Shown piece by piece: positions 5,830 through 63,981 of a stretch of 64,000 bases of DNA. Source of the stretch: Bacteroidota bacterium (GTDB lineage: Bacteria > Bacteroidota > Ignavibacteria > SZUA-365). Below the pieces are notes generated by a model. The model was given only the letters and a program-made list of their open reading frames with translations, did no database searches and was not told where the DNA came from. Each line of letters opens with the position of its first letter. Within the stretch, counting starts at the first letter, position 1. The stretch is from positions 6,275 to 70,274 of the forward strand of contig JARYLZ010000007.1 of assembly GCA_029907355.1 (NCBI GenBank), written 5' to 3'. The position numbers and the translations under genes are program-made.

Positions 5830-5953
5830 TTACAACCCTCTCTCTGATACAGCACTCTTGAAACAACTTTCTTGCCTCATCGAACCTGTGGCCCGATAAA
5901 ACGACGGTTTAGCTCGTATCGTGACGGGGTGTGCCGAGGCCAAGGAGAGAAAT

Positions 5954-47204: not shown

Positions 47205-47443
47205 CAGGAAAGACAGGCCGATCCGGTAGTGGGTGGGGGGTACTTTTAACGGGGAACGTACGATTCCGCGAAGTGTGCATGATGATGCTTCGCCGAATAT
47301 GCGGACTGCGGGTTTGCCCTTGGCAGCTCGTTCCCTCTCTCCTTATCTTCGATTTGGCATAAACACGGCTTTTTTCTTACTAAACGGCAAGATATTCCGA
47401 TCGCCTTCGAACGGGCAGAACATTCGGAGAACCCTGTGGACCG

Positions 47444-47812: not shown

Positions 47813-47827
47813 TTTAAAGTTCGCTCC

Positions 47828-48232: not shown

Positions 48233-48400
48233 GAGTATACAGGCGGGCTGTTCATCACGAGGATTCGTAACTGGTACAGAATCCGAACCATTTTCTTCGC
48301 TCACGCGAGCCGGGAAATATATCGCAACGGGGTCCAGACGAATAGAGGGGCGCGGCTTTCAGCAAGAGCGCGCCGGCTGTATTCTTCTGTATAATGATGA

Positions 48401-48949
48401 CTAATATGCCGCCTTCTTGTCTCGTTTCCCCCGCGGAACGAGCGGCCGGAACAGGATATGGTTCACCTGCACATGGTACATCGGGAACAAGCGACGCACA
48501 ACGAGTTCGCGATTCACCAGAAAGACGATGAAGAAAAGAACCTGAATTCCGTAGAGAGGGACACCGAGGCCGACAGCGACGCCTTCGGCGTCTCCCCCGT
48601 AGAGGAACGGCCCAATGGAAAGGTTGAGCGGATCGGCAAGAAAGAGGACCAGTGTCAGGTAGCAGAAGAATGTCCTCGTAAACAAAGCACGCAGGATGGA
48701 TAACTTCCCCCCGAACAGCAGGAGCGCGTACCCCGCAAGTATCGTGACGACATTGCCCGCCCCGGCGACCAACGCCCAATGCATACCCGACCGTTCGCCG
48801 ACAGGTGTTCTGTACTTGACCTCGAAGCCTATCGGCCGGATGTTGAATGATTCAAACTCGTTGTACAGTCTTGCCGCCGATGCATGCATGCCTTCATGCA
48901 CTGCGGCGAACGTGATCAATGAAAGGAGAAATGCCGACCACTTCATCAT
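48401..48949 (-). CDS. Putative membrane zinc metalloprotease (HExxH)
   Basis: 182 aa with 4-5 TM helices. The HExxH motif (VHEGMHASAA) follows the first helix, resembling DUF3267/YhfC-like proteases. Confidence 0.5.
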   Translation of the reverse strand: MMKWSAFLLSLITFAAVHEGMHASAARLYNEFESFNIRPIGFEVKYRTPVGERSGMHWALVAGAGNVVTILAGYALLLFGGKLSILRALFTRTFFCYLTLVLFLADPLNLSIGPFLYGGDAEGVAVGLGVPLYGIQVLFFIVFLVNRELVVRRLFPMYHVQVNHILFRPLVPRGKRDKKAAY

Positions 48950-49072
48950 GGGAAAACCCGCAAGATCGATGGCAAGAATATTCTCGTACCGCGGATAGTA
49001 TCCTTTCAGCTTCCGCGTGTTTCACGCAACGACTCGGTCATCGCAGAACATGGTGTCCCTGCCAGGCTGCAT

Positions 49073-51910
49073 TCATGCCCCGGCGTTCGGGTCCTCGATC
49101 CGGACCCTTTCCCTCAATCCGAGGTCGTCCAGTATCTGCTCGATGTCGTTCTTGAAATGTTGCACGCGACTGCTCTCCAGGGTGACCGAGAATTCGATAC
49201 CGATCCTCAGGTCCGATCCGTCCCGCAATTTCGGGAGGATTTTCGTCCCCAGACGGTTCCAGACCTCTGGAGGCACTTCGCCGGTGATGGTCAATCTCCG
49301 GGTGATGGGCGTCGCGCATACGCAGGGCTGTCGTTTGCATGTCGGGCATACGATCGGCTGGGGACACGTGCAAGGATACGTGCCGCATTTCGGGCACGTC
49401 TTCGGCAGCTGTTCGCATCGGCAGGGGATGGTCAGGCATTTCGGGCACACGGTTGCCGGTGGTTTCGCCGCGTCTTTCCATCTCTTCGCTTCGTCCTGCA
49501 AGAGCAGGAATACATCCGCCTCGAACATGATGTCCGCCGGATCGATGGGCTCCTCGAACAGCACACGATCGTACCCGCCACCCGGTTTTCGCCCGTAAGC
49601 GATCCCGAACTCTCCCCTGCCCACGAATTCGACGATTTTGTTTCGAAGGGTCGCGTCGGGGTCCAGAAGGCGCGTGAGCGAACCGTTCAGGAAGCTCTGG
49701 CGCAGTCCGGACAGCGGCCAAGCACCGGATTCACGGAACACAGGCGGCCAGTTCCGTTCAATGTATCCCGATCCGACGGACTCGCTCAAGAGGGCTTGGG
49801 ACTTCAATGCCGTTATGACCCTCCCACAGAGCGTCTCGCTCCCGCTCGAGTGACCCGCGCCGAGGTCGATGGATTTCAGCCCGTCCGCCTCCTTACTATC
49901 CGCGATGACCACGAAACGGTAACCGCCCCAGACCTCGTCTTTTGCGGCTTCCTCCGCATCCGTCACCTTCGATTGAAGTTCCGCTCGGTCGCTTCGGTCG
50001 AAATCCCCGCCGAGTGTTCCCTCGGCCACTTCCTTCGCGACGCGTTTCCATGCCAGCCACAACTCGACTTTGTCGCGGAGAACGCGGCCGGGTTTCTTGA
50101 GACACCACACGAGCGAGCCGGGATAGAGCCTTGGCGACTTGCCCCGCTGACTCGTCCACTCCGCGATCTGGCGGCGCAGATCGCCTGCTCCGGTCCATTC
50201 CGATTCCGGATCGACGATAACCAGCGTGAGACGCGGCGTATCCGGCACGGCTGTTCCATCTTCGGGGAAGGATACCACGGGTACAGTCGCCCCTCGTTCG
50301 AACTCCTTCCGGATGAGCATCCGCATCGCGGGTTTGATTTCGGATTCCTCGTCGAGCGACGCCCGCCGGTCGCTGACGACCTTCTTCAAGGTCGGCTGGT
50401 GGCTGATCTTGAACCCGTCCGAGCCCACCCGCCGAATGAAATACGATTTGTCTTCCAATGCGAAGGCGGCATTATCGATCGAGGTCGTGTCTACCGCCGG
50501 CTCACCCAGGGCAAAACGCAGCTCCGGCAGGTGGGCCACCTTGTCCACCTGCCCGCCGGAAGACTCGAAGAGAATCGTCGTCCCCACCCGGCGGTGGATG
50601 TTCTTGAGCACGCCCGTGGTGTCCGCGTCGAGCGCACGGGCATGCGAATGCGCGCCGGCGATGTCGGAATCGATGGCGGCCACGAGCCGGGATTCGCCGA
50701 GCTGGCCCAACACGACGCTGCGGAACTCCGGCACTTCCAGCGGGGCAGATCCCAGCGTGATGAGCGGCTCGCGCCGCGACTCGGTAAACCCGGTCCGGTA
50801 CGCCCAGGAAATCCACTGCGCGAGCATGGCCAGCGTCCCTCGCGTCTGCTGGTACTGCGAAAGCGCCTGCCATTTTCTCTGGAACACCGAAAGCGTCGCC
50901 GGGTGGAACGGGTAGCATGCCTCGAACCTGTTGCGCAGGAATTCCCTGGCTTTGGTCTCGGTCGTCGCGGTATCTACCGCCGTCCATTCGGGTGGGAGTT
51001 GCGCCCGCCGTTCGAAGCACCAGTCGGCGTAAGCCTTGGCGACGTTCTTCCGTACGCGATCGTTGCCCATGTCCTCGAACAGCCGGCGCCGCACGACCTC
51101 GCTGATCTCCGTCTCATCGTTGGCGATGAGGTCTTTCGCCACACGGCGTACGACCTTGGTGAGCCTTTCCTGCCACTGCATGTCCCAGTCGGTCATCTCG
51201 ACCTGGCTGCGGGGCAGGCTGATGACGGCGGCCCCGTGCGTAACACCCGTTGCTGCCACCGTCAAATTCTGAATGAAAGCGTGGAACTGCTCCGCCATGC
51301 CGCGATGGCGGTTCAGGAAATTCAGCACTTCGTCGAAAAGGAGGAGTACCTGGCCGCCCGCCGCCTGGAAAACGCGAGCCAAAGCCTCTGTACCCGGCGG
51401 CGTGGTCTTGGCCGCCGAGCCCAACTCACGCACCCCCGCCTCTCCGGCCAACTGCCGAGCGATATCGATCCACGGCGTCTCGCGCCCTTCCTGCGGGTCC
51501 CAGGCATTGCCGACGAAGACACCCACTCGCGCCTTGGGTACGGAGGAGAGCCCGGCCTCCTTCAGCAACTCGGGTACACCGTTGTATTCCGCCGCTTTGT
51601 CGCCGCACATGGCAAGGTGGTAGAGAGCCGTCAGCGTGTGCGTCTTTCCGCCGCCGAACTGGGTGATGAGCGTCATGACCGGTGCGGTGTTCTCCGTTTC
51701 ACCGGAGAGACGACGGAGCACCATACTCGTATATTCCCGCAAGGCACGAGTCCAGCACGTACGCTCGAAGAATTGTTTCGGGTCCCGGTAATCCTCGGGC
51801 GCGGTCCCGGCGATGACTTGTTCCAGGTGGATGGCGAACTCGTCCGGGTTGAACGAGCGGCCCTCGCGGACTTCCTTGCGCGGCGTGGAGACTTTGTACC
51901 AAGGATCCAT
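49073..51910 (-). CDS. DUF499-family ATPase (BrxC/PglY-like P-loop NTPase) with a Cys-rich CPxC-repeat C-terminal tail
   Basis: Walker A QFGGGKTHTLTALYHL. The N-terminal region is DUF499-like and the protein is long at about 945 aa. The start is placed at MDPWYKV (51910) because the 15 upstream codons of the track ORF are a translation of the polypurine repeat. The tail is TVCPKCLTIPCRCEQLPKTCPKCGTYPCTCPQPIVCPTCKRQPCVC. Confidence 0.8.
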   Translation of the reverse strand: MDPWYKVSTPRKEVREGRSFNPDEFAIHLEQVIAGTAPEDYRDPKQFFERTCWTRALREYTSMVLRRLSGETENTAPVMTLITQFGGGKTHTLTALYHLAMCGDKAAEYNGVPELLKEAGLSSVPKARVGVFVGNAWDPQEGRETPWIDIARQLAGEAGVRELGSAAKTTPPGTEALARVFQAAGGQVLLLFDEVLNFLNRHRGMAEQFHAFIQNLTVAATGVTHGAAVISLPRSQVEMTDWDMQWQERLTKVVRRVAKDLIANDETEISEVVRRRLFEDMGNDRVRKNVAKAYADWCFERRAQLPPEWTAVDTATTETKAREFLRNRFEACYPFHPATLSVFQRKWQALSQYQQTRGTLAMLAQWISWAYRTGFTESRREPLITLGSAPLEVPEFRSVVLGQLGESRLVAAIDSDIAGAHSHARALDADTTGVLKNIHRRVGTTILFESSGGQVDKVAHLPELRFALGEPAVDTTSIDNAAFALEDKSYFIRRVGSDGFKISHQPTLKKVVSDRRASLDEESEIKPAMRMLIRKEFERGATVPVVSFPEDGTAVPDTPRLTLVIVDPESEWTGAGDLRRQIAEWTSQRGKSPRLYPGSLVWCLKKPGRVLRDKVELWLAWKRVAKEVAEGTLGGDFDRSDRAELQSKVTDAEEAAKDEVWGGYRFVVIADSKEADGLKSIDLGAGHSSGSETLCGRVITALKSQALLSESVGSGYIERNWPPVFRESGAWPLSGLRQSFLNGSLTRLLDPDATLRNKIVEFVGRGEFGIAYGRKPGGGYDRVLFEEPIDPADIMFEADVFLLLQDEAKRWKDAAKPPATVCPKCLTIPCRCEQLPKTCPKCGTYPCTCPQPIVCPTCKRQPCVCATPITRRLTITGEVPPEVWNRLGTKILPKLRDGSDLRIGIEFSVTLESSRVQHFKNDIEQILDDLGLRERVRIEDPNAGA

Positions 51911-51925
51911 GATCAACCTACGGTT

Positions 51926-51960
51926 GGAAGGCAAAAGGAAAAAGGTAAAAGGCAAAAGGG
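51926..51960. repeat. Polypurine repeat copy a (GGAAGGCAAAAGGAAAAAGGTAAAAGGCAAAAGGG), in inverted orientation to copy b
   Basis: I read this copy directly. It lies between the DUF499 start and the four-helix-bundle stop. Its reverse complement nearly matches copy b at 52335-52382. Confidence 0.7.
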
Positions 51961-51962
51961 TG

Positions 51963-52334
51963 TCATTTTGACTTTCTCTTTTTCGCGTTTACGACGATCG
52001 ATCCGATGATCCGAGACAACTCGTTGGCTTCTCGATTCAGCGAGTCGATCTGATCGGCTTCGCCGAAGCCGGCGGCCCGTAACAATCGAAGCCAGTAGAT
52101 GGTTTCCCGCGCCTCTTTCAGGGCAATCGCATATTTACTGACGAAATCCGCCAAGCTTTGACCGGCCTGGGCTTCCTCGACATTCGAGCCGATGGAGGTT
52201 CCCGACCGAAGCAATTGCTTTCCCAATGCCCGTGAAACATCCGCATACGCTTCTAGCCGCCGACAAAGACGCACGATTTCCACCGCGAAAGCGAAGGTGC
52301 GCTCCTTGATGTCCCGCGGCTTATCATTGTTCAT
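51963..52334 (-). CDS. Four-helix-bundle protein (TIGR02436-like, the family known from 23S rRNA intervening sequences)
   Basis: 123 aa reading MNNDKPRDIKERTFAFAVEIVRLCRRL...ALGKQLLRSGTSIGSNVEEAQAGQS...YAIALKEARETIYWLRLL. This matches the conserved pattern of that family. It is bracketed by inverted polypurine repeats. Confidence 0.75.
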   Translation of the reverse strand: MNNDKPRDIKERTFAFAVEIVRLCRRLEAYADVSRALGKQLLRSGTSIGSNVEEAQAGQSLADFVSKYAIALKEARETIYWLRLLRAAGFGEADQIDSLNREANELSRIIGSIVVNAKKRKSK

Positions 52335-52382
52335 TTCCTTTTCCCTTTTGTTTTTTCCTTTTGCCTTTTTCCTTTTTCCTTA
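52335..52382. repeat. Polypyrimidine repeat copy b (TTTCCTTTTCCCTTTTGTTTTTTCCTTTTGCCTTTTTCCTTTTTCCTTA)
   Basis: It lies between the four-helix-bundle start codon and the DUF1156 stop codon. Copies c (about 52978-53015) and d (about 53094-53127) have the same orientation and sit inside the DUF1156 gene about 108 bp apart. Confidence 0.7.
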
Positions 52383-55352
52383 TCTCGGCACTCCCAGAAG
52401 CATCGCATCCAGCAGGCGCTTCTCTTCGCTCGCTTTCGGGTACAACGCCGAGAGGGCATTTGACAGCCGCAGGAAATCCGGGCCGCGTTCCATCTCGGCT
52501 TTTATGAGGGTCCGGAGTGCGTTGGTATGGCCCCCCGCTTGAAGGAGCATCGCGGCATGGACACGGTCGAGCGTCGTCGGACCATGTCCATCACGGCTAT
52601 TCAGAGAATGCAGAGATTCCTCATCCATAATGATCCTCTTTCCTCTGTGCCCTCTGTGTCTCCGTGGTGATTCTTCCATCTCGGGGAAGAGCACTAGCTG
52701 AAGGTTCTTCTTCGGGTCTTGAACGCTCCAGTCGGCCACAGCGTCCGCGCCATCCTCGCCGAAGAGCTGCCTGGCGCGTTCTGACACGGCCATGAGCCGC
52801 ACCACGCCTTTCTTCGTCTCGATGATGCGGCCCTCCCACTTGGGAAGGTCAATCCCCAGAGGCTGAGCGAAACGGCGCACCACGTCGAAGACAAGACTGA
52901 AACCTTTGGGCTTGCTTTTCGACTCGACGTCCTCGTCATCCTCCTCTTCCACCCAATCCCCGACCTCCTCATCGTTAATTCTTTTACCTTTTTCCTTTTC
53001 CCTTTTTCCTTCCCCATCTGTGACCTGCAGCGTCCACAGAAACAGTGCCGTCAGGCGTGCGTCCTCTTCCAACTCCTGCCCCGCCCCCTCCATTTTTCCT
53101 TTTACCTTTTTCCTTTTTCCTTCCCCCATCACCTGCTCCAGCGCCGTGCGGCCGACGACTTCCCATACTTTCTCCAGGAACTCCGCCAGTTTCACCTCGC
53201 GCCCCTCGGCGGTTTCGACTTTGCGGTAGCGGCTGAAGATTTCCAGCGCCGGGCCGATGCAGGCGAAGACGAGGTCTGCGCCGCGAATGCCCTCGCCCTG
53301 CAGCCGCTCCATCCAATCACCCACGCGCTTGGGAAGTTCTCGCAACACCTCGCCCCAGTCGCCCACCGGCGCATCCTCGGGCCGCGGGCGGCAGACGAGG
53401 TGGACGCTGGTTTCAAGTGCTGCGTAGCCCTGGCCGCGCATGCGCTGTCTGCGTTCGGTGGCGATGGGCCACGAACCGGTTGTGCGCCATCCCGCCTGTA
53501 CCAGCGCCGAGACGAGCGCTTCCCAGCGGTCGGTGTCCTTGTGGGCGAAAACAACCGAGGCCACTCCATCCTCGCGGATAATCCGCTTCATACGGCCAAA
53601 GGCCTCATACATGCGGCTCTCGTACCACTGACGGTCATGCACGCCGCTGTCCTTGACCGCACGGTTTTCTGTAAGTTCGCGGGCTTTTTCGGTCTCCAGG
53701 GCCGTGAAGGCCTGCGGCAGGCGATTCTTCAAGCCCAGCCGGAGCCAGCTGTAGAAAAAGTCTGAAAGGTGCGCGTAGGGAATCTGGTTGGCGTAGGGCG
53801 GGTCGGTGAAGACCAAGTCCACCGATTCTTCCGGCAGGACAGCGTCCAGCACGTTGGCCAGGAGCGGCGACGAGGGTTGGTAGCGGACGGTAGAGAGGTT
53901 CCGAAGCGCGCTCTGGACACTGCGGATGGAGTAGCCCAGGCCCTCGCAGTTCGGGCTCAAGGGATTGCCTTCCACAAAGTCGGCGCGCATGGGAACGCCG
54001 GAACCCTGTATGAAGATGGACGTTACCCCTTCCGAGAGCCAGACGCAAAGAGAGGTGTGGTACTGGCCATTGTCCGAGTAAGCCGCATAGAGGCAGGCGG
54101 CGAGACCGTCGAGCAGGTCTTTCTCCTTGGTCTTCTTGGCCGCTTCCTTGAGCGCGTCCTCGATGACCTCGTGCAGTACCCAGCGTGAGAAGCGTTGACG
54201 CGGGGCCAGGACTTCGACCCAAGTCTTGATTCCGTATGGACCAGGAGGAAATGCCCGCGTGTCGTTTTGCGGAAACCCGGCCATCTCAAACCTGATGTCC
54301 TTAGCTTTCACAAAAGCAGCAGAGAACGCTTTGAGGTCTTTAGGTGTCGGTGCGGAATATTCCTTTCCTCGGCTGTTTGTATTTCGCCACACGACCGCAA
54401 GAAGCATGGCATCATCCGCTCCGCCGCGCTTGTCGCGCAGTTGCGCCTGAACTCGTTCGCGCGGGGTAACCATGTGGCACTTCGGGCAGGTGGCGTTGTT
54501 CCCGGCAACGGTGCCGCGTTCGACCTCCTTGTCGCTGGAAGGCGTGAAGACCTCAATCTTCGGCTCCAACGATCCCTTGGGATATGTGATGCGCAGCGCT
54601 TTCTTGCGGCCCTTGGCCTGCGAAAGCCAGAGGTTACGCACGAGCGGAATGGTTGCCCCGCACCCGGCGGCCTCGCATTTGACGGTTCGCGCCCAGAGAT
54701 AGGCGAGCGGCTTCCGCCTGTACGCATCCGCCGGGTAGTACTCGCCCAGCCGCCTCTCTGCCTCTCTCAACACCCATTGTGACCATTCCTCGAACAGGTC
54801 GGCTAGTTGCGGTCCTTTGCGAGCACACCATTCGAGCGCGATCTTCAAGAGAAGCCACGCGACGGGATTGATGTCGGACGCAGTCACCTCGCAGCCGAGG
54901 CGCTGAGCTTCCAGCGGGATGGAGCCGCCGCCGGAGAACGGGTCCAGGACGTGCGGGACCGCACCGTGCGCGGCCTTCACCAGCTCGCGGGCCATGGAGA
55001 CGTAGCCTGCCACGCGGACGATGTCCCAGTTGGCGATGTCGGCCACGAAGGCCAGAAGCGCCTTTTGAAGGTCGGCGTCCTTCGGACCGACCTTCTTGTT
55101 CTGCTGGAGCGCCTTCCTCGCCGCCGCCTTGAACTCCGCCGGGCAGAGCGGGTCGCACGGGTCGGGGAGAAGCAGCGTCAGGAGAAGCGACCGGCAGGAG
55201 GCCAGCGGACGCCGCGCCCACCACGAGTGGAGAAGCGAGAGGTGGCCGCTGTCCACGCGGGTCTTGCGGTTGTTCTCCTCGACGCAGGCGTCGTTCACAC
55301 GCGACAGCGGAAAGTCCACCTCTGCCAGGCGTTTGCATTCTTTCGGGATCAT
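52380..55352 (-). CDS. DUF1156-family N6-adenine DNA methyltransferase (Zn-ribbon-containing)
   Basis: The N-terminus KRLAEVDFPLSRVN...SGHLSLLHSWWARRPLA is the DUF1156 signature. The SAM/catalytic region shows FSGGGSIPLEA and the DPPY motif (LVFTDPPYANQIPY). Cys pairs fit a Zn ribbon (CEAAGCG, CPKCH). A K/E/G-rich internal duplication is encoded by repeat copies c and d. Confidence 0.85.
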   Translation of the reverse strand: MIPKECKRLAEVDFPLSRVNDACVEENNRKTRVDSGHLSLLHSWWARRPLASCRSLLLTLLLPDPCDPLCPAEFKAAARKALQQNKKVGPKDADLQKALLAFVADIANWDIVRVAGYVSMARELVKAAHGAVPHVLDPFSGGGSIPLEAQRLGCEVTASDINPVAWLLLKIALEWCARKGPQLADLFEEWSQWVLREAERRLGEYYPADAYRRKPLAYLWARTVKCEAAGCGATIPLVRNLWLSQAKGRKKALRITYPKGSLEPKIEVFTPSSDKEVERGTVAGNNATCPKCHMVTPRERVQAQLRDKRGGADDAMLLAVVWRNTNSRGKEYSAPTPKDLKAFSAAFVKAKDIRFEMAGFPQNDTRAFPPGPYGIKTWVEVLAPRQRFSRWVLHEVIEDALKEAAKKTKEKDLLDGLAACLYAAYSDNGQYHTSLCVWLSEGVTSIFIQGSGVPMRADFVEGNPLSPNCEGLGYSIRSVQSALRNLSTVRYQPSSPLLANVLDAVLPEESVDLVFTDPPYANQIPYAHLSDFFYSWLRLGLKNRLPQAFTALETEKARELTENRAVKDSGVHDRQWYESRMYEAFGRMKRIIREDGVASVVFAHKDTDRWEALVSALVQAGWRTTGSWPIATERRQRMRGQGYAALETSVHLVCRPRPEDAPVGDWGEVLRELPKRVGDWMERLQGEGIRGADLVFACIGPALEIFSRYRKVETAEGREVKLAEFLEKVWEVVGRTALEQVMGEGKRKKVKGKMEGAGQELEEDARLTALFLWTLQVTDGEGKREKEKGKRINDEEVGDWVEEEDDEDVESKSKPKGFSLVFDVVRRFAQPLGIDLPKWEGRIIETKKGVVRLMAVSERARQLFGEDGADAVADWSVQDPKKNLQLVLFPEMEESPRRHRGHRGKRIIMDEESLHSLNSRDGHGPTTLDRVHAAMLLQAGGHTNALRTLIKAEMERGPDFLRLSNALSALYPKASEEKRLLDAMLLGVPR

Positions 55353-57322
55353 TGCCCACCTCCTCGCTGTGGTTTGAGGGCAATGATCTTTTCGACGATG
55401 CCCTTCAGGGTCACGCTTATCTTCCCATCAGCCGATGCCTTCTCGACGATACGCTGGAGAACGACGGGGTTCTTCAACGCATCCTTCTTCTTTTGGATGC
55501 CGAGTTGCGTTTGGGCTTCCGAAAGCAACCGGCCAAACAGGTCTTTGCCGATTTCCTCTTCAAGCGTAGTCTCGAGTTTGACCTTGAAACAGGCGTATTT
55601 GTCTTTCACACCGCATGGCCAGTCTTCTTCCGACTCGCCGACAAGCCGCAGCAGCTTGCGGTTGTCTTCAGGAATAGCACCATCTTCACCATTATCGCTG
55701 TCCCAGACGACGTAAACCGGGATGCCGAGTCGCCGGAAAATTACCAGAGGGCGATCCAAGTTGTTCTTTCCGATGCAGGGGATAACCGAGATGCCTTCGC
55801 TGTCGAAATTGTGCCCCATCGACGCGGCTACGCCGAGAATGGCGGCGCGGTCATCCTCGCCTTCGACCAGCACCGCAACATCGGCAAAGAATCCTTCGTT
55901 GAGCCACGGAGTCATCACAGCCTGAAGACGGGGGCGAAGCGTATCGGCGGTGTACTTGGCACCTTGTTTGCCTCCCGCAATCCATATTTCTTCGGCTACT
56001 GCGCCCAGTTCTGCCTTGATAGCCTTTGTCACCCTCGGTTTCCCGGCGACATCATCGAACTTCCGCAAGAGGCGGATTTGCTCGAAGCGGTCGAGTCCGA
56101 CAAAAAGCGGGGAGTGCGTAGAGTAGAGGACCTGCGTCCGCTTCGCCACGCCGGGGATCGTGCCTTGCGACAGTTTCAGAAGGACGGACGCCATGTGCCG
56201 CTGGCGGCTCGGGTGTTGGTAGAGTTCCGGCTCCTCGATGGCAAGAACCAGGCTGGGGAGCTGCGGCTCACCCTGTTCGGGAATCTCCGCCTCCGACGCA
56301 AAGCCCTCTTCGGTTGCGGACTCAACGCCCTTGGCCGCAACGAGATGCTGCAACATGGTCAGGATGAAGGCGCGCTGGAGACCGTGGCCCGTCCGCTGGA
56401 CCGAGGACTTGTATCCGTCTTCGTGAAGTTTGACCTCGGCCTTCGGCAAGGGAAAATCAATGTCAACGAGTTTGGCCCATTCCATCGAGACGTTCGCTTC
56501 GGGGGCATATTGTCGTAGGGTTTCGGATAGCTGCGTCTGAAGCCCGGAAAGCTCCGTGAGTCTTGCGGGGTCCATGATTTCGCGGTACTTCTTCTGCGTC
56601 TCGTCCTTCAGCGTCACGAATTCCTTCCGGTTGGTGAGTGCGCGCCGAACCACGAGGTCCATGATTTCCGTGACGCATGATCCCTTGCCTTCGGTGGCGT
56701 CATCCGACGCATCCCGGACGGCGGGGATGTGGATGAAGCGCGTGTGACGGCCGAGGTAGCCGTTACCGACTTCCGTGAATCCGAAAAATTGCCCATCGTC
56801 GCGCATGCGGGAACATGAACCTGGGTTGGCGGCCTCCCACTTTCTCAGTTCTTCCTCGACTTGATCCGCGTTCCGAACTGTAGGAAGTGAAGAGTAATTT
56901 GGCTTGCTCCTGATTTCGTTGTATTTGTTCCTGATCTCCGATTTTCCACCTGCGTTGCGAACTTCGGCAAATTCCGGATTCTGGAGTTTCATGCCATGGT
57001 AGGTTCCCGACTTCTTGGCCGAGAAAGAGAAGACTCTGGCAACGGTGAGGTCGTTGCCATCGAGATACGGCGCAAACAGGGCGTTCTCCTCGGTGCCGAG
57101 GTCGGTGAACGTCAAGGCGATTTCGATTTCCCTACTTGTGTCCTCCGCGTAGAAATCCTCAGCCGAGACAGCCGCCTTCGGGTCGTAGAACAACTCCATC
57201 GCCCGAAGGAAGGATGACTTGCCGGTGCCGTTGCGCCCGACAAGGACCGTCAGGTTGTCGCAATCAATCCGCTCGTCGAGAACCGAACGGAAGTTTTTAA
57301 CATGGATGGCCTTGACAATCAT
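55349..57322 (-). CDS. OLD-family nuclease: N-terminal ABC-type ATPase plus C-terminal Toprim domain
   Basis: Walker A VLVGRNGTGKSSFLRA, Walker B LAIEEPELYQHP and a Toprim block VLVEGEDDRAAILGVA...VIPCIGKNNL. Its stop overlaps the DUF1156 start by 4 nt. Confidence 0.8.
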   Translation of the reverse strand: MIVKAIHVKNFRSVLDERIDCDNLTVLVGRNGTGKSSFLRAMELFYDPKAAVSAEDFYAEDTSREIEIALTFTDLGTEENALFAPYLDGNDLTVARVFSFSAKKSGTYHGMKLQNPEFAEVRNAGGKSEIRNKYNEIRSKPNYSSLPTVRNADQVEEELRKWEAANPGSCSRMRDDGQFFGFTEVGNGYLGRHTRFIHIPAVRDASDDATEGKGSCVTEIMDLVVRRALTNRKEFVTLKDETQKKYREIMDPARLTELSGLQTQLSETLRQYAPEANVSMEWAKLVDIDFPLPKAEVKLHEDGYKSSVQRTGHGLQRAFILTMLQHLVAAKGVESATEEGFASEAEIPEQGEPQLPSLVLAIEEPELYQHPSRQRHMASVLLKLSQGTIPGVAKRTQVLYSTHSPLFVGLDRFEQIRLLRKFDDVAGKPRVTKAIKAELGAVAEEIWIAGGKQGAKYTADTLRPRLQAVMTPWLNEGFFADVAVLVEGEDDRAAILGVAASMGHNFDSEGISVIPCIGKNNLDRPLVIFRRLGIPVYVVWDSDNGEDGAIPEDNRKLLRLVGESEEDWPCGVKDKYACFKVKLETTLEEEIGKDLFGRLLSEAQTQLGIQKKKDALKNPVVLQRIVEKASADGKISVTLKGIVEKIIALKPQRGGGQ

Positions 57323-57327
57323 GACCG

Positions 57328-57540
57328 TTACCTCACCTGCCTGTTGGAATACCGCCCCTTGATGTGGTTGTGAAAATACGACCCCTTTGATGCGGCTCGC
57401 ATGAAGTCCTGATAAACGGTCTCTGGTACACCAGAGTACTGGTAAACGCCTCCGCTATTGAACTCCACCTCCAGCGTCCTCGACGCTGGGTCATAGCCCA
57501 CGGAACGGATATTGCTTGAGCGGACTGGTCTTCTGTTCAT
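57328..57540 (-). CDS. KTSC-domain protein
   Basis: 70 aa reading [57 protein letters not shown], which matches the KTSC domain pattern. Its start overlaps the RmuC stop by 4 nt. Confidence 0.7.
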
Positions 57541-58964
57541 GCTTGGTTGTCCTCCTTCACCTCCGGCGCGGAGATCGCCCGGGGCGTCGTCTCAACAGGT
57601 GATAGAGGCGGTATCTCGTTGCCGGTCGCGGCCCCCAAGTCCTTGAACTTGCGGGCGGCGGGCAGAACCCGGGCTTCCATCGAGCCGACGGCGCTGTTGT
57701 AGGCCGCGTTGGCCTTCTCCAGACCTTTGCCGATTGCAGCAAGGTGCTCAGCCATGGTTCTCATGCGTTCGTAGAGATCCTTGCCAAGGTTACTAATTTC
57801 CTGGGCATTCTTCGCGATTTGTTCTTGTCGCCATCCATAAGCCACGGCTCGCAGAAGCGCGATAAGCGTAGTGGGGGTCGCCAGAACTACGCGCTGCGCC
57901 AGACCGTCCTCAATGAGTGAGTGGTCGGCGTCCACCGCCGCGCCGAAGAACGACTCGCCGGGAATGAACATGACCACGAACTCGGGGGCCTTGGGAAACT
58001 GGCTCCAGTACGCCTTCGAGGCAAGGGTGTTCATGTGACTGCGAACTTGCGCTGCGTGCCGCGCCATGGCCGCATTGCGCACGTCTTCGGACTCGGCGGC
58101 GACGGCGTCAAGGTACGCCTCCAGCGAAACCTTCGCATCCACGACGATCTCCCGTTCGGCTGGCAGCCGTATGAGCAGGTCCGGACGCAGTCGCCCTTCC
58201 TCGGTGCCGACGGTCACCTGCTCGGCGAAATCGCAATGTTCGGACATCCCCGCCAATTCCACCACGCGACGCAGGGTCATCTCGCCCCAGCGGCCGCGTA
58301 CCTGCGGCTTGCGCAGGGCCGTGACGAGATTCGCGGTCTCTCTCTGCAACTGCTGCTGGCTCGTAGACAGGAGTCTCAAGTGCTCTGTCAGGCCGGAATA
58401 GGCTTCCTGGCGGTTTTTCTCAATCGTGCGGACGTATTCCTCGAACTTGGCAATGGACTCCGCCAGCGGCTTGACCATACCTTGAATGGCTTCCTGACGT
58501 TTGCCGAGATCGCCCCTGGCATCCGTCAGCACTTTGTCGAGCGTTTCCTGCGCCAGTTTCAGGAACGCGGTCGTGCTGGTGTTGAGCGTGTCTCCGGCAA
58601 GAGCCTTGAAGGTGTCCGTGAGCTTGGCCTTGGCCTCCTCCAAGAGCTTCTTCTCTTCCTGAAGCCGCTGGACGGTCTCCGCCAACTGAGTTTCGGCCTT
58701 CACCCTCGCGCTCGTCTCAGCAGCCAGTTGATCCCTGACCTTTGTGAAGTCCTCGGAGGCTTTCTGATTCTGCGAACGCAGTTCGGCAATAGTCCCTTCC
58801 AGCCCTGAGGCGCGCCCCTCGGCGGTATTCGCCCGGCGCTCGGATTCCTCCAACTTGGCGGTCATGAGCCTTGTGGCACGAGCGGTTGCAAGTAGCCAGG
58901 CCACAAGGCCGCCAATCAGCGCACCGGCCAAAACATACAATAGATAAATCATCGCAGCATTCAT
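57537..58964 (-). CDS. rmuC: DNA recombination protein RmuC
   Basis: From [19 protein letters not shown]: an N-terminal TM anchor, a long coiled-coil, and a C-terminal RmuC nuclease-like region ([18 protein letters not shown]...[11 protein letters not shown]...[15 protein letters not shown]). The track ORF extends 119 codons upstream through the YhcG gene and is ignored. Confidence 0.8.
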
Positions 58965-60169
58965 TCTCCGCCTCCTCCGCGTCTCTGCCGTACAATCATC
59001 CGCCGTTCCAGCGCCGCCCGCGTCCGTTCGATCTCGGCCGCCAATTCCTTCTCGTCCGGCAAGGCGGTTTTGTATTCCGCCGCCAGCACTTTGTTGGGGA
59101 GCCGGTCGAGGGCGTAGCGCACCACGGCCTCGTCCTTCTGGGCGCAGAGGATCAAGCCGACGGGCGGGTTCTCGCCGTCGCGGGTCCAGTGTTCCTGGGC
59201 ATAATTGAGATAGAGATGCATCTGGCCCGCGTCGGCATGGGTGAACTTGCCGATTTTGAGTTCGACAATGACCAGGCACTGCAACCGGCGATGGAAGAAG
59301 ACGAGGTCCACACGATACCACTCATCGCCGATGCGCAGGCGTTTCTGGCGGCCGGCAAAGCAGAAGTCGCCGCCGAGTTCCAGAAGGAAGGTCTCCAGGT
59401 GCCGGATCAGTGCTTCTTCGAGGTCGGACTCGGAGTACTCGTCCTTGAGGCCGAGGAACTCCAGCACATAGGGGTCCTTAATCTCCTCCTCGGGAGTGAT
59501 GCGGTCTTCCGGGAGGGCTTTCTGCCCTTTGGCGAGCATGGCGGCTTTATTGTGAGAGAGCGCGGTCCGTTCGTAGAATTGGGAGTTGATCTGCCGGTCG
59601 AGTTGCCGGACCGACCAGCCGCCCCGCAGGGCTTCCGTTTCGTAGAACCGGCGGGCGTTTTCGTTTTTGACCGCCAGCAGGCGGACGTACGCCGACCACG
59701 GGAGGGGGAAGTGAAAGGAGACGTTCTTCAGGAACTGTTCGATGGCGCCGTGCCCGGTTTCTCTTGATGGTGCCGAAAGAATCGGAAGGCTGGATTCTGC
59801 AGACGGCGTCTGCAGAATCTTAGGTTTGTCGGATTCCGCAGACGGTGTCTGCAGATTTGGCCATGCCAGGTAGAATGCCCTCATTTGCCACACATTGCGC
59901 ACGGAAAATCCTTTGCCATAGCGGGCGGACAAATCGGCCGCCAGACGCTCGATCAATTTCTCGCCGTACTCCGCCCGAACCCCTCCCTTCTGCTCGCTTT
60001 CGACGATCCGCCTGCCGATCAGCCAATAGGCAGCCGTCATGACGGAATTCACCGAGCGTGCCGCTGTTCTTCTCGCCGCAACGATAACCTCGGAAACATC
60101 GCCGAGAATCGCGCCATACGCCGAGTCGGCAACGACTGCAGGTGGAGTTCCGGGCGACTTGGGCCTCAC
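58961..60169 (-). CDS. YhcG/DUF1016-family nuclease with the PD-(D/E)xK restriction-endonuclease fold
   Basis: 402 aa. The N-terminal DUF1016-like helical region is followed by a C-terminal nuclease core ([45 protein letters not shown]). Its stop overlaps the rmuC start and its start overlaps the helicase stop, 4 nt each. Confidence 0.75.
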
Positions 60170-63100
60170 TTTTCTTCCTCCTCCGTGTTCGCTGTGCCTC
60201 TGCGGTGAACATCATATCCCGGCGAATCTTCCCGCACCTGCATGGGTCGCGTCATGGCGTCCACTTCCAGCCAATAGTGTTGGACCTTCTTGACCTCATG
60301 CCACGGGAAGCGCGCCGGATCGCGGATGGGCTCCTGGAGCGTGGGCTTGCCAGCGCAGTTCGTGACGATGTAGAGCCAGTAGCAGTCGCGCCGGTCCTCG
60401 GCGACGCGGCGCTCGTTGGGCGTGAGGAGGATCGTCCCGGTCGGATCGGCCAATCCTTTGACCTCGATGAGCCGCAGTTCGCCGGAATTGAGGTCGAGGC
60501 TGGTGATATCGTAGCCGAGGTTCTTCTCGTGGACGTCGTAAACCTGGCGTCCTTTGGAACGCTCGTACTCCATGACGACGCGCATGGCGGCGGCTTCCGT
60601 TTCGGCGCTGGGCTGGAGGTGGCGCACTTCGGGCAAACGGCGATCCGGGTGCGGCAGGACGAGGACACTGGCGATGCGCTCGACGGCCTGGAGCGTGAGC
60701 GACTGCTGCTGCCGGAGTTCCTTGCGGCGGCGGTCGCGCCGCGTCCGGAGTTCGTCGTGACGGTTCACGGCCTGGGCGAGTCGTCCTTCGGCCCCAGGCT
60801 CCTTCCGGTCGATGGCCTCCTGGGCCTTTCCGATTTCCTCGTCCGCCCGCTGGATGAGTTCCGTGAGCGACCATTCCACATGCTGCTCGATGCGTTGCAC
60901 TTCGGCGGTCCGTTCCTTGCGGACCTCTTCCAGGAACGGCCGGAAGGCGTTTTCCTGAAGCCAAGCGAGGGCTTCCGGCTCGAAGGCGACCGGCGGCAAA
61001 GGATCGGGGGAAGCAGCGGGGATGAGATCCGCCAGGATCGTTTCACCACAGAGACGCAGAGAGCACCGAGGACCATTCGTGTTTCCCTCTTTGTTCTCGC
61101 TGTCTCCGTGACGGGTCTTCAAATCCACAGCGAAGAGACGTTCACGGACCACCTGTCCCAACCCGTCCACCACGCGGGCGCGGTAGAAATCGATGCGTGA
61201 CGGCTCTTCGTGTTGGAGGGAGTAGAAGCAGGCACCTTTGCCGAGGGCCTCGGCGGCCATGGCGCACGTGTGCCGGCGGACGGCTTCGAAGAGGGGATGG
61301 CCGGGCGTGACCCACTCGAGATTGTTCTTTTCAGCCGTGTCGCGGTCTGTCGAGCAGGGGGGATAGCGTGGAGCCAGCGGGGGGAGCTTCCAATCCGCCG
61401 CCCGTTCGTACTCCTTCAGGAACGAGGGCGTTCGGCCGGGTTCGAAAGTGTGAGGGAGATGCGGAACGTCCTTGATATCGAGGTCTGCATAGGAGGCGGC
61501 CTCGCGGATGAAGCGGGCGACGGTTTCCGGCACGACGCGGCGTTCCTGGGCGCGAGCCCGTCGCTCGATGAGCATCTCCAGATTGAGTTTCTTGGACGCC
61601 AAGCCCTCCAAAGCGTTCCGGCAGATGTCACGGAATCGGCCCTCGTCGACGTTCTTGAGCAGGCGTTCCTCGAGGTCGGCATCGCCGAGTTTCCCGGCGT
61701 AGTAGTCCCGCAGGATGCGCTCCACGTGGGCCGCAGGCAGGATTTCGCCGACGACGTTGAAGACGGCGTCGTCGTCCAGCGCGTCGCGGATTTCCTGGAG
61801 TTTCTCCAGCAACCGCTGCAGCACACTGCCCTCGATGGTGTTCGTGGCCACGAAGTTGAAGATCAGACAGTCCTTCCGCTGGCCGTAGCGATGGATGCGG
61901 CCCATGCGCTGTTCGAGGCGGTTGGGATTCCAGGGGATGTCGTAGTTGAACAGGATGTTGCAAACCTGGAGGTTGATGCCTTCGCCCGCCGCCTCGGTGG
62001 CCACGAGAATCTGGATTGCGCCCTCGCGGAATTGCTGCTCCGAGTAGAGCCGCGTGCCCGGCTCGTCGCGGGAACCGGGTTTCATGCCGCCGTGGATGCA
62101 GCCGACGCGGAATCCCCAACCCTTCAGCTTCCCGACGAGGTAGTCGAGCGTGTCCTTGAATTCGGTGAAAATGAGCAGACGCTTGTCCGGCTGGTCGAAG
62201 AAGCCTTCTCCGTGGAGGAGGTCCTTGAGTTTCGACAACTTCGCTTCGCAGTCGCCGTTTTCCACGGCCTGAGCCAGGTCTGCCAGTCGGCGGAGTTCGG
62301 AAATCTCCTCCCGCACCTGGTCGGCGTTCCTGGCCAGCGTGATGGCTTCGAGCAATTCCTCCATGCGCTCGCGCTCGCTCTCTTCCATTTCCTCGATCTC
62401 TTCCGGGTCCGGCAGATCGGGCAGATCGAGGCTGACGAGTTCCTGAGCCTTCTTCAGACCTTCCTCCAGCCGGCGGGCGCGTTTCTCGAGGCTGTGACGC
62501 ATGGCATACGTGCTGGAAGCCAGCCTGCGTTGGTAGAGGGACATCAGGAAACCGACCGCACGGGCACGGGGATCGTCGCCCTGGGCGGCGGCCTTGGCGC
62601 TCTGACGCTTCACGAATCGCGTAACCTCCCGGTAGAGCTCGAATTCCGCGCCATCGAGTTGGAAATCCACGGTGTGGGGGATACGCTTCGTGAAGATCTT
62701 CTCGGTGACCCAGGTGCCATCCGGCCGCCGCTCCGGGAAGTAGACCATCGCTTCCTTGGTGCGGCGGAGATAGAACGGTGCGCGACGACGCTCCATCGCC
62801 TCGCGGATCGACCGCACGTCCGCATAGGCGTCCGGTTCGAGGAGTTGAAGGAACAGGGAGAAGTTCTCCGGGTCGCCCTTGTGCGGCGTCGCCGTGAGCA
62901 TCAAGATGTGGTCCGATGTATCCCTCAGGAGCTCGCCGAGGGCGTAGCGGGCGGTCTTGCGGGCCGGAGGCGTCCAGGACATGCGGTGCGCCTCGTCCAC
63001 GATGACGAGGTCCCAGTGGACCTGCCTCAAGCCGGGGAGGATCTCCGTCCGCTTTGCGAGGTCCAGCGACGTAATGACCTTATTCCGCTCCAGCCACTGG

Positions 63101-63678
63101 TTGACGCCGAACTGCTCGCGAATATCGCCGCCCTTGAGGATCACGAACGTCTCGTCGAACTTTTCCTTGAGTTCGCGCTGCCATTGGAAGGAGAGGTTGG
63201 CCGGACAGACGATGAGAATGCGCTCAGCGAGACCGCGCAGTTGAAGTTCCCGAATCAAGAGGCCGGCCATGATCGTCTTGCCGGCTCCGGCGTCATCGGC
63301 GAGAAGAAACCGGACCCGTGCAGCCTTGAGGAGGTAATCGTAGACGGCTTCGAGCTGGTGCGGTAAAGGGTCGACACGTGATATGGAAAGGCCGAAGTAC
63401 GGGTCGAACTCCCAGGCGATGCCGAGGGTGTATGCCTGGAGGCCCAAGCGCAAGAGACGCCCATCTCCGTCGTAACGGAAGCCGACGTCGAGAATGGTGA
63501 GGGCGGCAAAGTCCTGAGCGGTCAACGTCACCTTGCGGAATCGTTCGCTCTGCGTACCGACCAGACCAACGACCCAGGTTCCGTTTCCGTTATCGTGCAC
63601 CGTCTCCACGCGCATCGGCTCGTTGAAGATCGGGCCGGTGAGCACTTGGCCTTCGACCGGGAAATGCCGTTCACTCAT
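60166..63678 (-). CDS. SNF2-family DEAH-box helicase fused to a C-terminal DUF3883 (restriction-endonuclease-like) domain
   Basis: 1170 aa. Motif I LADDAGAGKT, motif II VIVDEAHRM, motif III MLTATPHKGD and motif VI QRMGRIHRYGQ are present. The C-terminal block GYDITSLDLNSGELRLIEVKGLADPTGTILLTPNERRVAEDRRDCYWLYIV is DUF3883-like. Confidence 0.85.
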   Translation of the reverse strand: MSERHFPVEGQVLTGPIFNEPMRVETVHDNGNGTWVVGLVGTQSERFRKVTLTAQDFAALTILDVGFRYDGDGRLLRLGLQAYTLGIAWEFDPYFGLSISRVDPLPHQLEAVYDYLLKAARVRFLLADDAGAGKTIMAGLLIRELQLRGLAERILIVCPANLSFQWQRELKEKFDETFVILKGGDIREQFGVNQWLERNKVITSLDLAKRTEILPGLRQVHWDLVIVDEAHRMSWTPPARKTARYALGELLRDTSDHILMLTATPHKGDPENFSLFLQLLEPDAYADVRSIREAMERRRAPFYLRRTKEAMVYFPERRPDGTWVTEKIFTKRIPHTVDFQLDGAEFELYREVTRFVKRQSAKAAAQGDDPRARAVGFLMSLYQRRLASSTYAMRHSLEKRARRLEEGLKKAQELVSLDLPDLPDPEEIEEMEESERERMEELLEAITLARNADQVREEISELRRLADLAQAVENGDCEAKLSKLKDLLHGEGFFDQPDKRLLIFTEFKDTLDYLVGKLKGWGFRVGCIHGGMKPGSRDEPGTRLYSEQQFREGAIQILVATEAAGEGINLQVCNILFNYDIPWNPNRLEQRMGRIHRYGQRKDCLIFNFVATNTIEGSVLQRLLEKLQEIRDALDDDAVFNVVGEILPAAHVERILRDYYAGKLGDADLEERLLKNVDEGRFRDICRNALEGLASKKLNLEMLIERRARAQERRVVPETVARFIREAASYADLDIKDVPHLPHTFEPGRTPSFLKEYERAADWKLPPLAPRYPPCSTDRDTAEKNNLEWVTPGHPLFEAVRRHTCAMAAEALGKGACFYSLQHEEPSRIDFYRARVVDGLGQVVRERLFAVDLKTRHGDSENKEGNTNGPRCSLRLCGETILADLIPAASPDPLPPVAFEPEALAWLQENAFRPFLEEVRKERTAEVQRIEQHVEWSLTELIQRADEEIGKAQEAIDRKEPGAEGRLAQAVNRHDELRTRRDRRRKELRQQQSLTLQAVERIASVLVLPHPDRRLPEVRHLQPSAETEAAAMRVVMEYERSKGRQVYDVHEKNLGYDITSLDLNSGELRLIEVKGLADPTGTILLTPNERRVAEDRRDCYWLYIVTNCAGKPTLQEPIRDPARFPWHEVKKVQHYWLEVDAMTRPMQVREDSPGYDVHRRGTANTEEEEK

Positions 63679-63702
63679 GGGTGGATCGCCGATATCGTGT
63701 TC

Positions 63703-63981
63703 TCAAATGGAATCGATTCCCTCTTCGTTGAAACAGTCTTCAGGATCGACGAACGCCGAACGCTGTCCCTTCCCCTCGTCGTCTCCGGCAGCCTCACCGT
63801 CCGTGCGGTTTTTGTTCGTGTATGCTCCCCTGTCGGCCAATAGGAATTCGGGAGCGAATCGCATCTCTCCCGTTTTCGCTGATTGTGCTCCCAACGGGTT
63901 TTCTCCGAAAAGATTTCCCCTCACTATTCTCGAAGGGATGAACGGCCTCCATCGATCGAATCGCCCGTTCGACTTCATCAT
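63703..63981 (-). CDS. Hypothetical small acidic protein upstream of the helicase (possibly the first gene of the operon, or truncated by the window)
   Basis: 92-aa ORF ending 24 nt upstream of the helicase start. It has no recognisable motif and is low confidence. Confidence 0.25.
   Translation of the reverse strand: MMKSNGRFDRWRPFIPSRIVRGNLFGENPLGAQSAKTGEMRFAPEFLLADRGAYTNKNRTDGEAAGDDEGKGQRSAFVDPEDCFNEEGIDSI

Follow-up and report, generated by a model that had tools for sequence, protein, structure and literature searches.

We analysed a stretch of 64,000 nucleotides (nt) from a contig of a Bacteroidota bacterium (JARYLZ010000007.1), which we will call the window, and we focused on an operon at positions 49073-63678. 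The operon comprises eight open reading frames (ORFs) that lie head-to-tail, all on the minus strand. An earlier note on this DNA, made from its sequence alone, had described eight co-directional and tightly coupled genes at this position, and we agree with that description. It also took the eight genes to be a candidate for one composite anti-phage system, in an arrangement that it did not recognise as a named system. Here our results differ. Judging from domain content and model matches, three of the genes make up a named defence system, Hma ("helicase, methylase, ATPase"), and the other genes are embedded within it.

The first gene to be transcribed is hmaA (60166..63678; 1170 amino acids (aa)), which encodes a Swi2/Snf2 helicase with a C-terminal NOV_C domain. 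Four embedded genes follow: a YhcG-type PD-(D/E)xK nuclease (embedded gene 1; 58961..60169; 402 aa; GTG start), an RmuC nuclease (embedded gene 2; 57537..58964; 475 aa), a stand-alone KTSC domain (embedded gene 3a; 57328..57540; 70 aa), and an OLD protein, which joins an ABC ATPase to a TOPRIM nuclease (embedded gene 3b; 55349..57322; 657 aa). After these comes hmaB, which encodes a DUF1156 methyltransferase (52380..55352; 990 aa). An upstream inverted-repeat arm of 30 nt (52352..52381), with purine-rich heptads (AAGGNAA) on the mRNA strand, separates hmaB from the gene for a four-helix-bundle protein (embedded gene 4; 51963..52334; 123 aa). A downstream arm (51928..51957) lies between that gene and hmaC (49073..51910; 945 aa), which encodes a DUF499 AAA+ ATPase that is BrxC-like. 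Upstream of hmaA, and on the same strand, positions 63679..63915 are probably a promoter region or an untranslated leader, preceded by a hairpin (63938-63916, minus strand) that resembles a terminator. The sole ORF of the leader region (63703-63981) has no match in Pfam.

The junctions between consecutive genes, in transcription order, are -4, -4, -4, +5, -4, +45, and +52 nt. The earlier note had counted four ATGA overlaps. There are indeed four overlaps of 4 nt, and three of them are ATGA (including the one between the OLD stop and the hmaB start), but at the helicase/YhcG junction, the GTG start of YhcG overlaps the stop of hmaA as GTGA. GGAGG-like sequences are found ahead of most of the starts. 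We placed the start of hmaC at the ATG at 51910, not at the TTG at 51955, because the alignment of homologues, which begin with MEPWYK, agrees with this choice. All eight reading frames are intact and are full length compared to their homologues, and the catalytic motifs are preserved in all of the operon's enzymes.

To annotate the proteins, we used the thresholds of Pfam and NCBIfam for domains and the individual models of PADLOC v2 for defence families. Each of the domain assignments that had been proposed previously was confirmed above the Pfam or NCBIfam thresholds. HmaA contains SNF2-rel_dom, Helicase_C, and NOV_C (formerly DUF3883), and it matches PADLOC's HmaA model over residues 44-1106 (8.4e-175). 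Its motifs are intact: GAGKT131, DEAH228, QRMGRIHR590, and the nuclease residues D..E1072-V-K1074..E1089. These nuclease residues (D, E-x-K, and E, with equal spacing from E-x-K to E) match essential residues of HmaA from Halomonas. HmaB matches DUF1156 in Pfam (2.5e-14), has weak hits to methyltransferase families, and matches PADLOC's HmaB (1.1e-88). It has motif I (FSGGG139) and motif IV (DPPY517), with an insert of about 370 aa between them. HmaC matches DUF499 (1.1e-12) and, over residues 1-721, PADLOC's HmaC (2e-96); it has both a P-loop (FGGGKT) and a Walker B motif (LLLFDE189).

Because the HmaA, HmaB, and HmaC models match at full length or nearly so, and because the genes are in the canonical order, we identify the core as Hma. 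The three genes also share a strand. Hma was named in 2021, on the basis of 1,638 three-gene operons from 26 phyla (PMC8565338, Payne et al. 2021). A survey from 2026 renames Hma loci as type-1 DUF499-centred BREX-related (BR) systems, and by the same evidence, the triad belongs under that name as well. That survey relates HmaC to BrxC, HmaB to the methylase of type-3 BREX, and HmaA to BrxHII (PMC12839542). In Halomonas meridiana, HmaA by itself protects Escherichia coli against phage T4, and its NOV_C domain is a Mn-dependent nickase that requires the D, E-x-K, and E residues (PMC11232893). The earlier note's proposal of a defence locus, which was based on the DUF499/DUF1156/helicase triad, therefore stands. 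The note had added that a match to a named system would remove the novelty, and such a match was found for the hmaABC core.

The interruption of the triad by other genes, which the earlier note had pointed out, also has published precedents. Embedded genes were reported in 931 of 1,485 Hma systems (62.7%) and comprise 376 distinct cassettes; seven of the nine cassettes that were tested were active in defence, including HEC-04, a fusion of an ABC-ATPase and TOPRIM (bioRxiv 10.1101/2024.01.29.577857). The hmaABC locus of Halomonas is an insertion hotspot, with Septu between hmaA and hmaB (PMC11232893), and type-1 BR loci contain OLD/TOPRIM and PD-(D/E)xK nucleases as "backup effectors" (PMC12839542). 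Both the core and the nesting of other defences in Hma are already known. In the window, hmaA and hmaB are separated by four genes, while the published survey allows three (Payne et al. 2024, Fig. 1B); that limit is a search parameter of the survey and not a biological criterion.

To examine the relatives of this operon, we scanned species-representative genomes with the OLD protein. We found 80 loci, at 43-86% identity, from more than 15 phyla of bacteria and archaea; here and below, individual loci with OLD homologues go by numbers such as L001. The loci were tabulated with tblastn and jackhmmer, and KTSC was counted with a separate jackhmmer search. Around three of the OLD homologues, the context is HmaA-[RmuC]-KTSC-OLD-HmaB-[small variable gene]-HmaC. 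KTSC-OLD is nested in Hma in about 15 non-redundant loci, always between hmaA and hmaB. The order HmaA-RmuC-KTSC-OLD-HmaB-HmaC is found in metagenome-assembled genomes that are labelled as Bacteroidota (the window), Planctomycetota/Verrucomicrobia, Acidobacteria, Syntrophaceae, Syntrophobacteraceae, and Thermovirgaceae, and from locus to locus, all six proteins share 75-90% identity.

Other parts of the operon vary. RmuC is absent from the Desulforudis-type loci, YhcG is present only in the window and in L019, and the slot between hmaB and hmaC has at least five different contents. Since relatives keep the core while RmuC, YhcG, and the gene between hmaB and hmaC are present, absent, or replaced, the eight genes are not a fixed system, contrary to the idea of a single composite. 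Judged by gene content across loci, the operon is a conserved six-gene lineage, to which YhcG and the four-helix-bundle gene are added as locus-specific parts. HmaC is 77-79% identical to the HmaC proteins of L001, L006, and L004. The whole cassette has moved horizontally, and recently, because this level of identity holds across the window and the loci labelled as Planctomycetota/Verrucomicrobia and as Desulforudis. Genes for tyrosine recombinases flank related Hma-KTSC-OLD cassettes (Desulforudis-type loci L004/L005, 2575-5127), and L006 includes a fragment of an rve_3 transposase (18842-19033). These flanks are consistent with carriage on mobile elements.

Two of the core proteins also vary internally. 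HmaB from the window (52380-55352) and from L006 (11971-15018) are about 54% identical overall, but the identity is spread as a mosaic, with about 40-50% in the N-terminal and recognition-insert part and about 90% in the C-terminal third. The pattern suggests that the specificity region was exchanged between otherwise similar cassettes. In HmaC, residues 822-870 (49301-49447) are an insert with a triple tandem CPxC...PCxC motif that includes 12 cysteines and is zinc-ribbon-like. At the same place, before the C-terminal domain, the HmaC proteins of L001, L004, and L006 have a proline-rich linker instead.

We now turn to the embedded genes, beginning with KTSC and OLD. The KTSC protein matches the Pfam family of that name (8.7e-30) and has no match among the PADLOC v2 models. 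It is similar to two small solved proteins (for instance, PDB 7x8c, 2.9e-22) and to residues 630-692 of a SIR2-HerA ATPase (8wiv, 1.9e-14). In SIR2-HerA, those residues are spanned by the "C-terminal arm," which contacts the adjacent subunit and stabilises a split-spiral hexamer (PMC11472057). Aravind and colleagues have mentioned HerA-KTSC-endoDNase systems as unpublished observations, and they describe KTSC as nucleic-acid binding. The OLD protein matches AAA_15 (4.8e-40) and OLD-like_TOPRIM (5.4e-18) in Pfam and Old in PADLOC (4.6e-52); the AriA and GajA models from PADLOC match its ATPase part. Its closest solved structure is the class 1 enzyme TsOLD from Thermus scotoductus (6p74, 1.3e-24), and the Glu and DxD of the TOPRIM domain are aligned. 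The motifs GRNGTGKS29, which is Walker A, EEPE, EGEDD487, and DSD541 are intact. With an N-terminal ABC ATPase that has Walker A and B motifs plus, at the C terminus, a domain of the TOPRIM type that has acidic metal-binding residues, the protein falls within the definition of the OLD family.

Homologues of this OLD protein are widespread. More than 100 are at 70-92% identity, and their labels include Planctomycetota, Dethiobacter, Acidobacteriota, Syntrophaceae, Desulfobaccales, and Desulforudis. In the plasmid and phage collections, we found only distant homologues (at most 38% identity). The best plasmid hit, from the Roseibium aggregatum plasmid NZ_CP045634.1 (L088), has no KTSC gene; an SbcCD-like pair adjoins it, and a hypothetical gene of 772 aa follows OLD. 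In at least 46 of the 80 loci, as counted with jackhmmer, a KTSC ORF lies directly upstream of OLD; most of the gaps are -4 to +14 nt and a few are larger. These loci include archaea (Thaumarchaeota, Methanoregula, Theionarchaea, and Methanotrichaceae). In about 60 of 76 non-redundant loci, KTSC-OLD occurs without any Hma gene; outside of Hma, it is found near type III-like Mod/Res genes, SbcCD-like pairs, and HEPN/MNT (toxin-antitoxin) pairs. For instance, restriction genes of a type III-like kind (N6_N4_Mtase and a ResIII helicase-endonuclease) are neighbours of OLD in L015, L042, L044, and L048, and an SbcD-like phosphoesterase with a large SbcC/AAA_23 ATPase adjoins OLD homologues in L031, L038, L042, L052, L081, and L088.

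The context-based classes of OLD are stand-alone genes (class 1), those with GajB (class 2), and those with retrons (classes 3/4), and none has a KTSC partner (PMC10568477). By context, we rejected class 1, because of the KTSC ORF and because the gene is nested in Hma; we rejected class 2 (Gabija) and classes 3-4 (retrons), as the operon has no UvrD or reverse transcriptase domain and Rfam finds only tRNAs. We found no description of the KTSC-OLD link in the text of the open-access literature and the partly covered supplements. Also, KTSC, RmuC, YhcG, and the four-helix-bundle protein were not found in the searched portions of the supplements to the papers on Hma embedding and on BR systems. 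The pairing of KTSC with OLD is the only part of our findings that may be undescribed. We propose that this family of OLD proteins has KTSC as a partner, for regulation, for assembly, or for the sensing of nucleic acids.

The other two nucleases also have matches among the PADLOC models. YhcG matches DUF1016_N and YhcG_C (7e-59 and 6e-42) and, over its full length (16-391), a candidate defence family in PADLOC (PDC-S02, PDLC04807; 1.3e-139). Among the Hma relatives, L019 is the only other locus with YhcG (72% identity), where it is likewise just upstream of KTSC. A YhcG-like gene also lies between Mod and Res in L015 (10001-19500), which is another case of YhcG nested in a restriction system. 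RmuC matches Pfam's RmuC (6e-107) and PADLOC's RTasRmuC (1.4e-65). Its best match in NCBIfam is the model for canonical RmuC, at 184 bits versus an equivalog cut-off of 810. RmuC has a transmembrane segment near its N terminus (residues 6-26) and a coiled coil. Its position between hmaA and KTSC is kept in six other loci (L001, L006, L009, L010, L018, and L032), where RmuC is 63-90% identical; in all six, OLD is at least 81% identical.

The four-helix-bundle protein belongs to a family that is known from ribosomal RNA genes. It matches 23S_rRNA_IVP in Pfam (6.8e-22; 78.1 bits versus a cut-off of 33.8) and TIGR02436 (2.4e-27; 95.3 bits versus a cut-off of 24). Its ORF is exactly bracketed by 30-nt inverted repeats (51928-51957 and 52352-52381), which are 90% complementary; a further repeat match of 25 nt is at 96%. 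When the RNA is folded, the repeats close the ORF into a long stem (z = -3.2). The heptad AAGGNAA gives 13 matches to an 18-mer across 51928-53122, versus 0.03 expected. Within the window, these repeats occur only on either side of the four-helix-bundle gene and in two stretches of hmaB (52980-53011 and 53091-53122), which encode Lys/Glu/Gly-rich linkers that are unlike the homologues.

The same slot is occupied differently elsewhere. In relatives, the space between hmaB and hmaC holds a PDDEXK_3 gene, DUF8426, DUF433 with PIN, a ParD/RelE-like pair, or nothing. The PDDEXK_3 gene of L001, which is unrelated to the four-helix-bundle gene, is bracketed by another 30-nt inverted repeat (14913-14942 and 15325-15354). 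One arm of this repeat directly follows the hmaB stop, the other directly precedes the ribosome-binding site of hmaC, and its sequence is unrelated to that of the repeat in the window. The cassette in the window resembles the intervening sequences of 23S rRNA, which encode proteins of the same family (PF05635) and in which a long stem of inverted repeats closes the loop that holds the ORF. But it lies in an mRNA spacer between defence genes and not in rRNA. By analogy, the stem-bracketed cassette might be processed by RNase III. Perhaps single-ORF cassettes that are bracketed by stems, in the manner of the intervening sequences of 23S rRNA, use the hmaB-hmaC spacer as a landing site. If so, such elements extend from rRNA to mRNA operons.

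We also offer a more specific proposal, tentatively and at somewhat less than even odds: KTSC-OLD would be an unrecognised, two-component class of OLD nuclease that is carried in a stable six-gene "super-Hma," with the hmaB-hmaC spacer as a landing site for cassettes. KTSC may control a class-1-like OLD enzyme or sense for it. KTSC-OLD, usually along with the membrane nuclease RmuC, may guard the Hma core, and the whole "super-Hma" lineage would pass from phylum to phylum in one piece.

For the operon as a whole, we propose that an Hma system serves as the carrier for nested and separable defence modules that are expressed from one promoter, as a coupled polycistronic mRNA. We give this reading a probability of roughly 75%. 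The promoter would lie upstream of hmaA, and translation of the genes would be coupled. By inference from its family, HmaB would mark the host's DNA by N6-adenine methylation, at a motif that is read by the nested recognition insert. HmaC, as an AAA+ ATPase that is BrxC-like and has winged helices for binding DNA, would assemble or target a surveillance complex, and the Swi2/Snf2 translocase HmaA would use its C-terminal NOV_C domain, of the PD-(D/E)xK type, to nick or cut DNA that is unmarked. In KTSC-OLD, the ABC ATPase would be a sensor that is fused to the TOPRIM nuclease, with KTSC as a regulator or assembly factor. We predict that KTSC-OLD, RmuC, and YhcG are additional or backup nucleases, which, by analogy with PARIS, might be triggered by inhibition of the core. 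The modules would be seamlessly inserted yet separable, would provide layered or backup immunity, and would travel with Hma by horizontal transfer.

Several observations weigh against this proposal. The scan for promoters and terminators across the operon gave counts that were not above those for shuffled sequence, and on the coding strand it found no sigma-70-like promoter. No role in defence is known for the four-helix-bundle protein. Over-expression of HmaB from Halomonas left the infectivity of T4 unchanged (PMC11232893), so a methylation-based step for distinguishing self from non-self is unproven even for the Hma family. Two further points concern separability. The spacings of RmuC/KTSC, KTSC/OLD, and OLD/HmaB (-4, +5, and -4) are identical in L001, L006, and the window, and the junctions around KTSC-OLD-hmaB have similar spacing in more distant phyla. 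Furthermore, in a neighbor-joining tree of OLD, one clade is almost entirely Hma-embedded. The conserved junctions and the Hma-restricted clade would also be compatible with parts that are functionally integrated and not independent cargo.

The integrated form of the system would be HmaA-RmuC-KTSC-OLD-HmaB-HmaC, with or without YhcG, acting as one co-evolved machine of many subunits. OLD/KTSC and RmuC would then be obligate effector or sensor subunits, or guards that are triggered when Hma is inhibited. Besides the gene order and junction spacing that the window shares with its closest relatives, and the 75-90% identity of all six proteins across loci from several phyla, this reading would account for the monophyletic RmuC subclade, which includes the window, within the Hma-embedded clade of OLD. 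Also, among the loci that we tabulated, RmuC of this type is seen only inside Hma, and OLD modules have been proposed as backup effectors that are tied to BREX/BR cores (PMC12839542). Nevertheless, we consider integration to be unlikely. Most KTSC-OLD loci lack Hma genes, as described above; the Hma-embedded pairs are scattered over several positions in the tree, with four further embedded cases among the non-embedded ones; RmuC is dispensable in the Desulforudis-type loci; and Hma systems without cargo exist, and HmaA is active alone (bioRxiv 10.1101/2024.01.29.577857; PMC11232893).

It is far less probable that this is a housekeeping operon for DNA repair or recombination, in which a SNF2 translocase, RmuC, an OLD-type nuclease, and a methylase work together outside of immunity. 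RmuC first became known because it affects inversion at short inverted repeats, and SbcCD-like genes neighbour some of the OLD homologues; one archaeal OLD class, Cran1, is reported to act in cell-cycle progression. But the operon's distribution is patchy, the cassette crosses phyla at 75-92% identity, and all three core proteins match models of defence systems. Toxin-antitoxin genes, restriction genes, and integrases are found in the neighbourhoods, and defence has been validated for HmaA, for the Hma-embedded OLD-like HEC-04, and for an effector with an RmuC domain. Least probable of all is that the insertions broke Hma and left a decaying mosaic whose genes no longer function together: hmaA and hmaB are further apart than the survey allowed, and hmaB and hmaC have unusual low-complexity or Cys-rich insertions, yet all eight frames are intact and full length, the catalytic motifs are preserved, the joints of the insertions keep their seamless overlaps of 4 nt, and the GC content at third codon positions (GC3) of the six large genes (0.69-0.80) is like that of neighbouring host genes.

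We also examined the surroundings of the operon, which had been described as a low-GC island next to a tRNA-Ser. The tRNA is there: tRNA-Ser(GGA) lies at 47118-47205, which is 1.9 kb from the 3' end of the operon. The low GC content, however, is confined to the 1.9-kb spacer between this tRNA and hmaC (47206-49072; 0.533), since the operon has a GC content of 0.609 and the whole window has 0.608. GC3 is somewhat lower for KTSC (0.66) and for the four-helix-bundle gene (0.64). We rejected deviations in GC or GC3 as evidence that the operon is an island, because the values match the window or the host genes, and we dropped the use of Shine-Dalgarno sequences as a foreign mark in Bacteroidota, because the host genes in the window are mixed and their starts are uncertain.

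The spacer may be island cargo or the edge of an island. It has three small ORFs. The first (47444-47812) encodes a putative secreted protein, in which there is an Ada_Zn_binding/DUF6233-like motif; the second (47828-48232) is lipoprotein-like; and the third (48401-48949) encodes a membrane protein. Within the window, we saw neither an integrase nor a repeat of the tRNA end, and the boundary on the 5' side of the operon lies beyond the end of the window. The search of the whole window with Rfam found just two tRNAs. The second is tRNA-Arg(ACG) (3082-3156), and directly after it is another low-GC stretch (3001-6000; 0.51-0.53), which may be another tRNA-linked insertion.

In some of the relatives, a small helix-turn-helix (HTH) gene (HTH_3 or HTH_17) lies just upstream of hmaA (L001-L003, 4702-4926; L006, 3235-4873). 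In L001, it overlaps the start of hmaA by 4 nt; in L006, a protein with AlbA_2/HATPase_c_4 is also encoded upstream of hmaA. We found no recognisable equivalent of the HTH gene in the 320 nt upstream of hmaA in the window.

We see the locus as a clear case of defence systems nested in defence systems, with one Hma scaffold and four extra modules. Because the first slot is fuller than the published survey allowed, annotation pipelines that expect tight spacing may miss or split such loci. KTSC-OLD is conserved in archaea and across many phyla of bacteria. It is absent from PADLOC v2 and from OLD classes 1-4, and it bears on a question from a review of OLD, namely what regulates the class-1-like enzymes and whether they have partners. 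The RmuC-KTSC-OLD-Hma lineage is also a natural setting in which to ask if modules that are embedded in a carrier system work together with it or merely travel along. The interest of the locus, which we judge to be moderate overall, lies in the conserved KTSC-OLD module, in an RmuC-KTSC-OLD-Hma lineage that spans phyla, and in the small-ORF cassettes bracketed by stems.

How does the operon compare to known systems? The earlier note was right that it is not like BREX/Pgl: the eight proteins contain no PglZ, kinase, or Lon-like protease domain, and the ATPase matches the HmaC and DUF499 models alone, not BrxC. It is not DISARM, as the helicase scores 364 bits against DrmD's equivalog cut-off of 610, and there is no DUF1998 or phospholipase D (PLD) protein and no DrmABC. 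We also rejected the "restriction-like" system of Gao, or type-2 BR, which consists of a PLD-helicase, DUF1156, and DUF499. The scores against the NCBIfam cut-offs are 164/1100, 192/1000, and 98/1200 bits, and the helicase has NOV_C instead of PLD.

Among single components, RmuC is reminiscent of ShdA, the effector of Shield. ShdA is a validated effector with an RmuC domain, and RmuC homologues are embedded in DISARM-like operons (PMC10270631). The two proteins share an N-terminal membrane anchor and a cytoplasmic RmuC nuclease of the PD-(D/E)xK type, as well as homologues that are embedded in helicase/methylase operons. Shield, however, is reported only in Pseudomonas, and our RmuC matches PADLOC's model of RmuC associated with reverse transcriptases. 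Going by architecture, RmuC may act in a similar way to ShdA, and we do not claim that it belongs to Shield. As for KTSC, the SIR2-HerA system of Paenibacillus (8wiv, PMC11472057) likewise has a KTSC-like domain attached to a defence NTPase, but there it is fused to the HerA hexamer, while here it is a separate gene beside an OLD ABC ATPase.

PARIS (AriA/AriB) and Gabija (GajA/GajB) also combine an OLD-type ABC ATPase with TOPRIM, and they are triggered, abortive, or backup nucleases. Their partners are a separate TOPRIM protein (AriB) or a UvrD helicase (GajB), whereas in the window the TOPRIM domain is fused and the partner is the 70-aa KTSC. Class 1 OLD proteins (P2 Old and TsOLD, 6p74) share the ATPase and TOPRIM motifs and have no UvrD-like or retron partner. 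KTSC-OLD differs in that the KTSC gene is 1-14 nt upstream in most loci and in that the pair is often nested in other defence operons. Also comparable are HEC-01 to HEC-04, which are ABC-type ATPases with TOPRIM nucleases that are nested in Hma (bioRxiv 10.1101/2024.01.29.577857). HEC-04 is also an ATPase-TOPRIM fusion, and its Walker A and metal-site residues are needed for defence. Going by residue numbers (K62, E319, and D375/D377, versus K35, E487, and D541/D543 here), HEC-04 appears to be shorter than our 657-aa OLD and differently organised, and no KTSC partner is mentioned for it.

The core matches Hma, or type-1 BR, with the same three proteins, domain architectures, and gene order, and with the same NOV_C nuclease residues. 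The Halomonas Hma also has nested defence genes (Septu and an AAA_21 pair) and a 4-nt overlap at the hmaA junction. In the window, the cargo is instead YhcG, RmuC, KTSC-OLD, and the four-helix-bundle gene, and the first slot holds four genes. About half of the type-1 BR systems have a HEPN domain at the N terminus of HmaC; the HmaC in the window lacks it and has a Cys-rich insert of its own.

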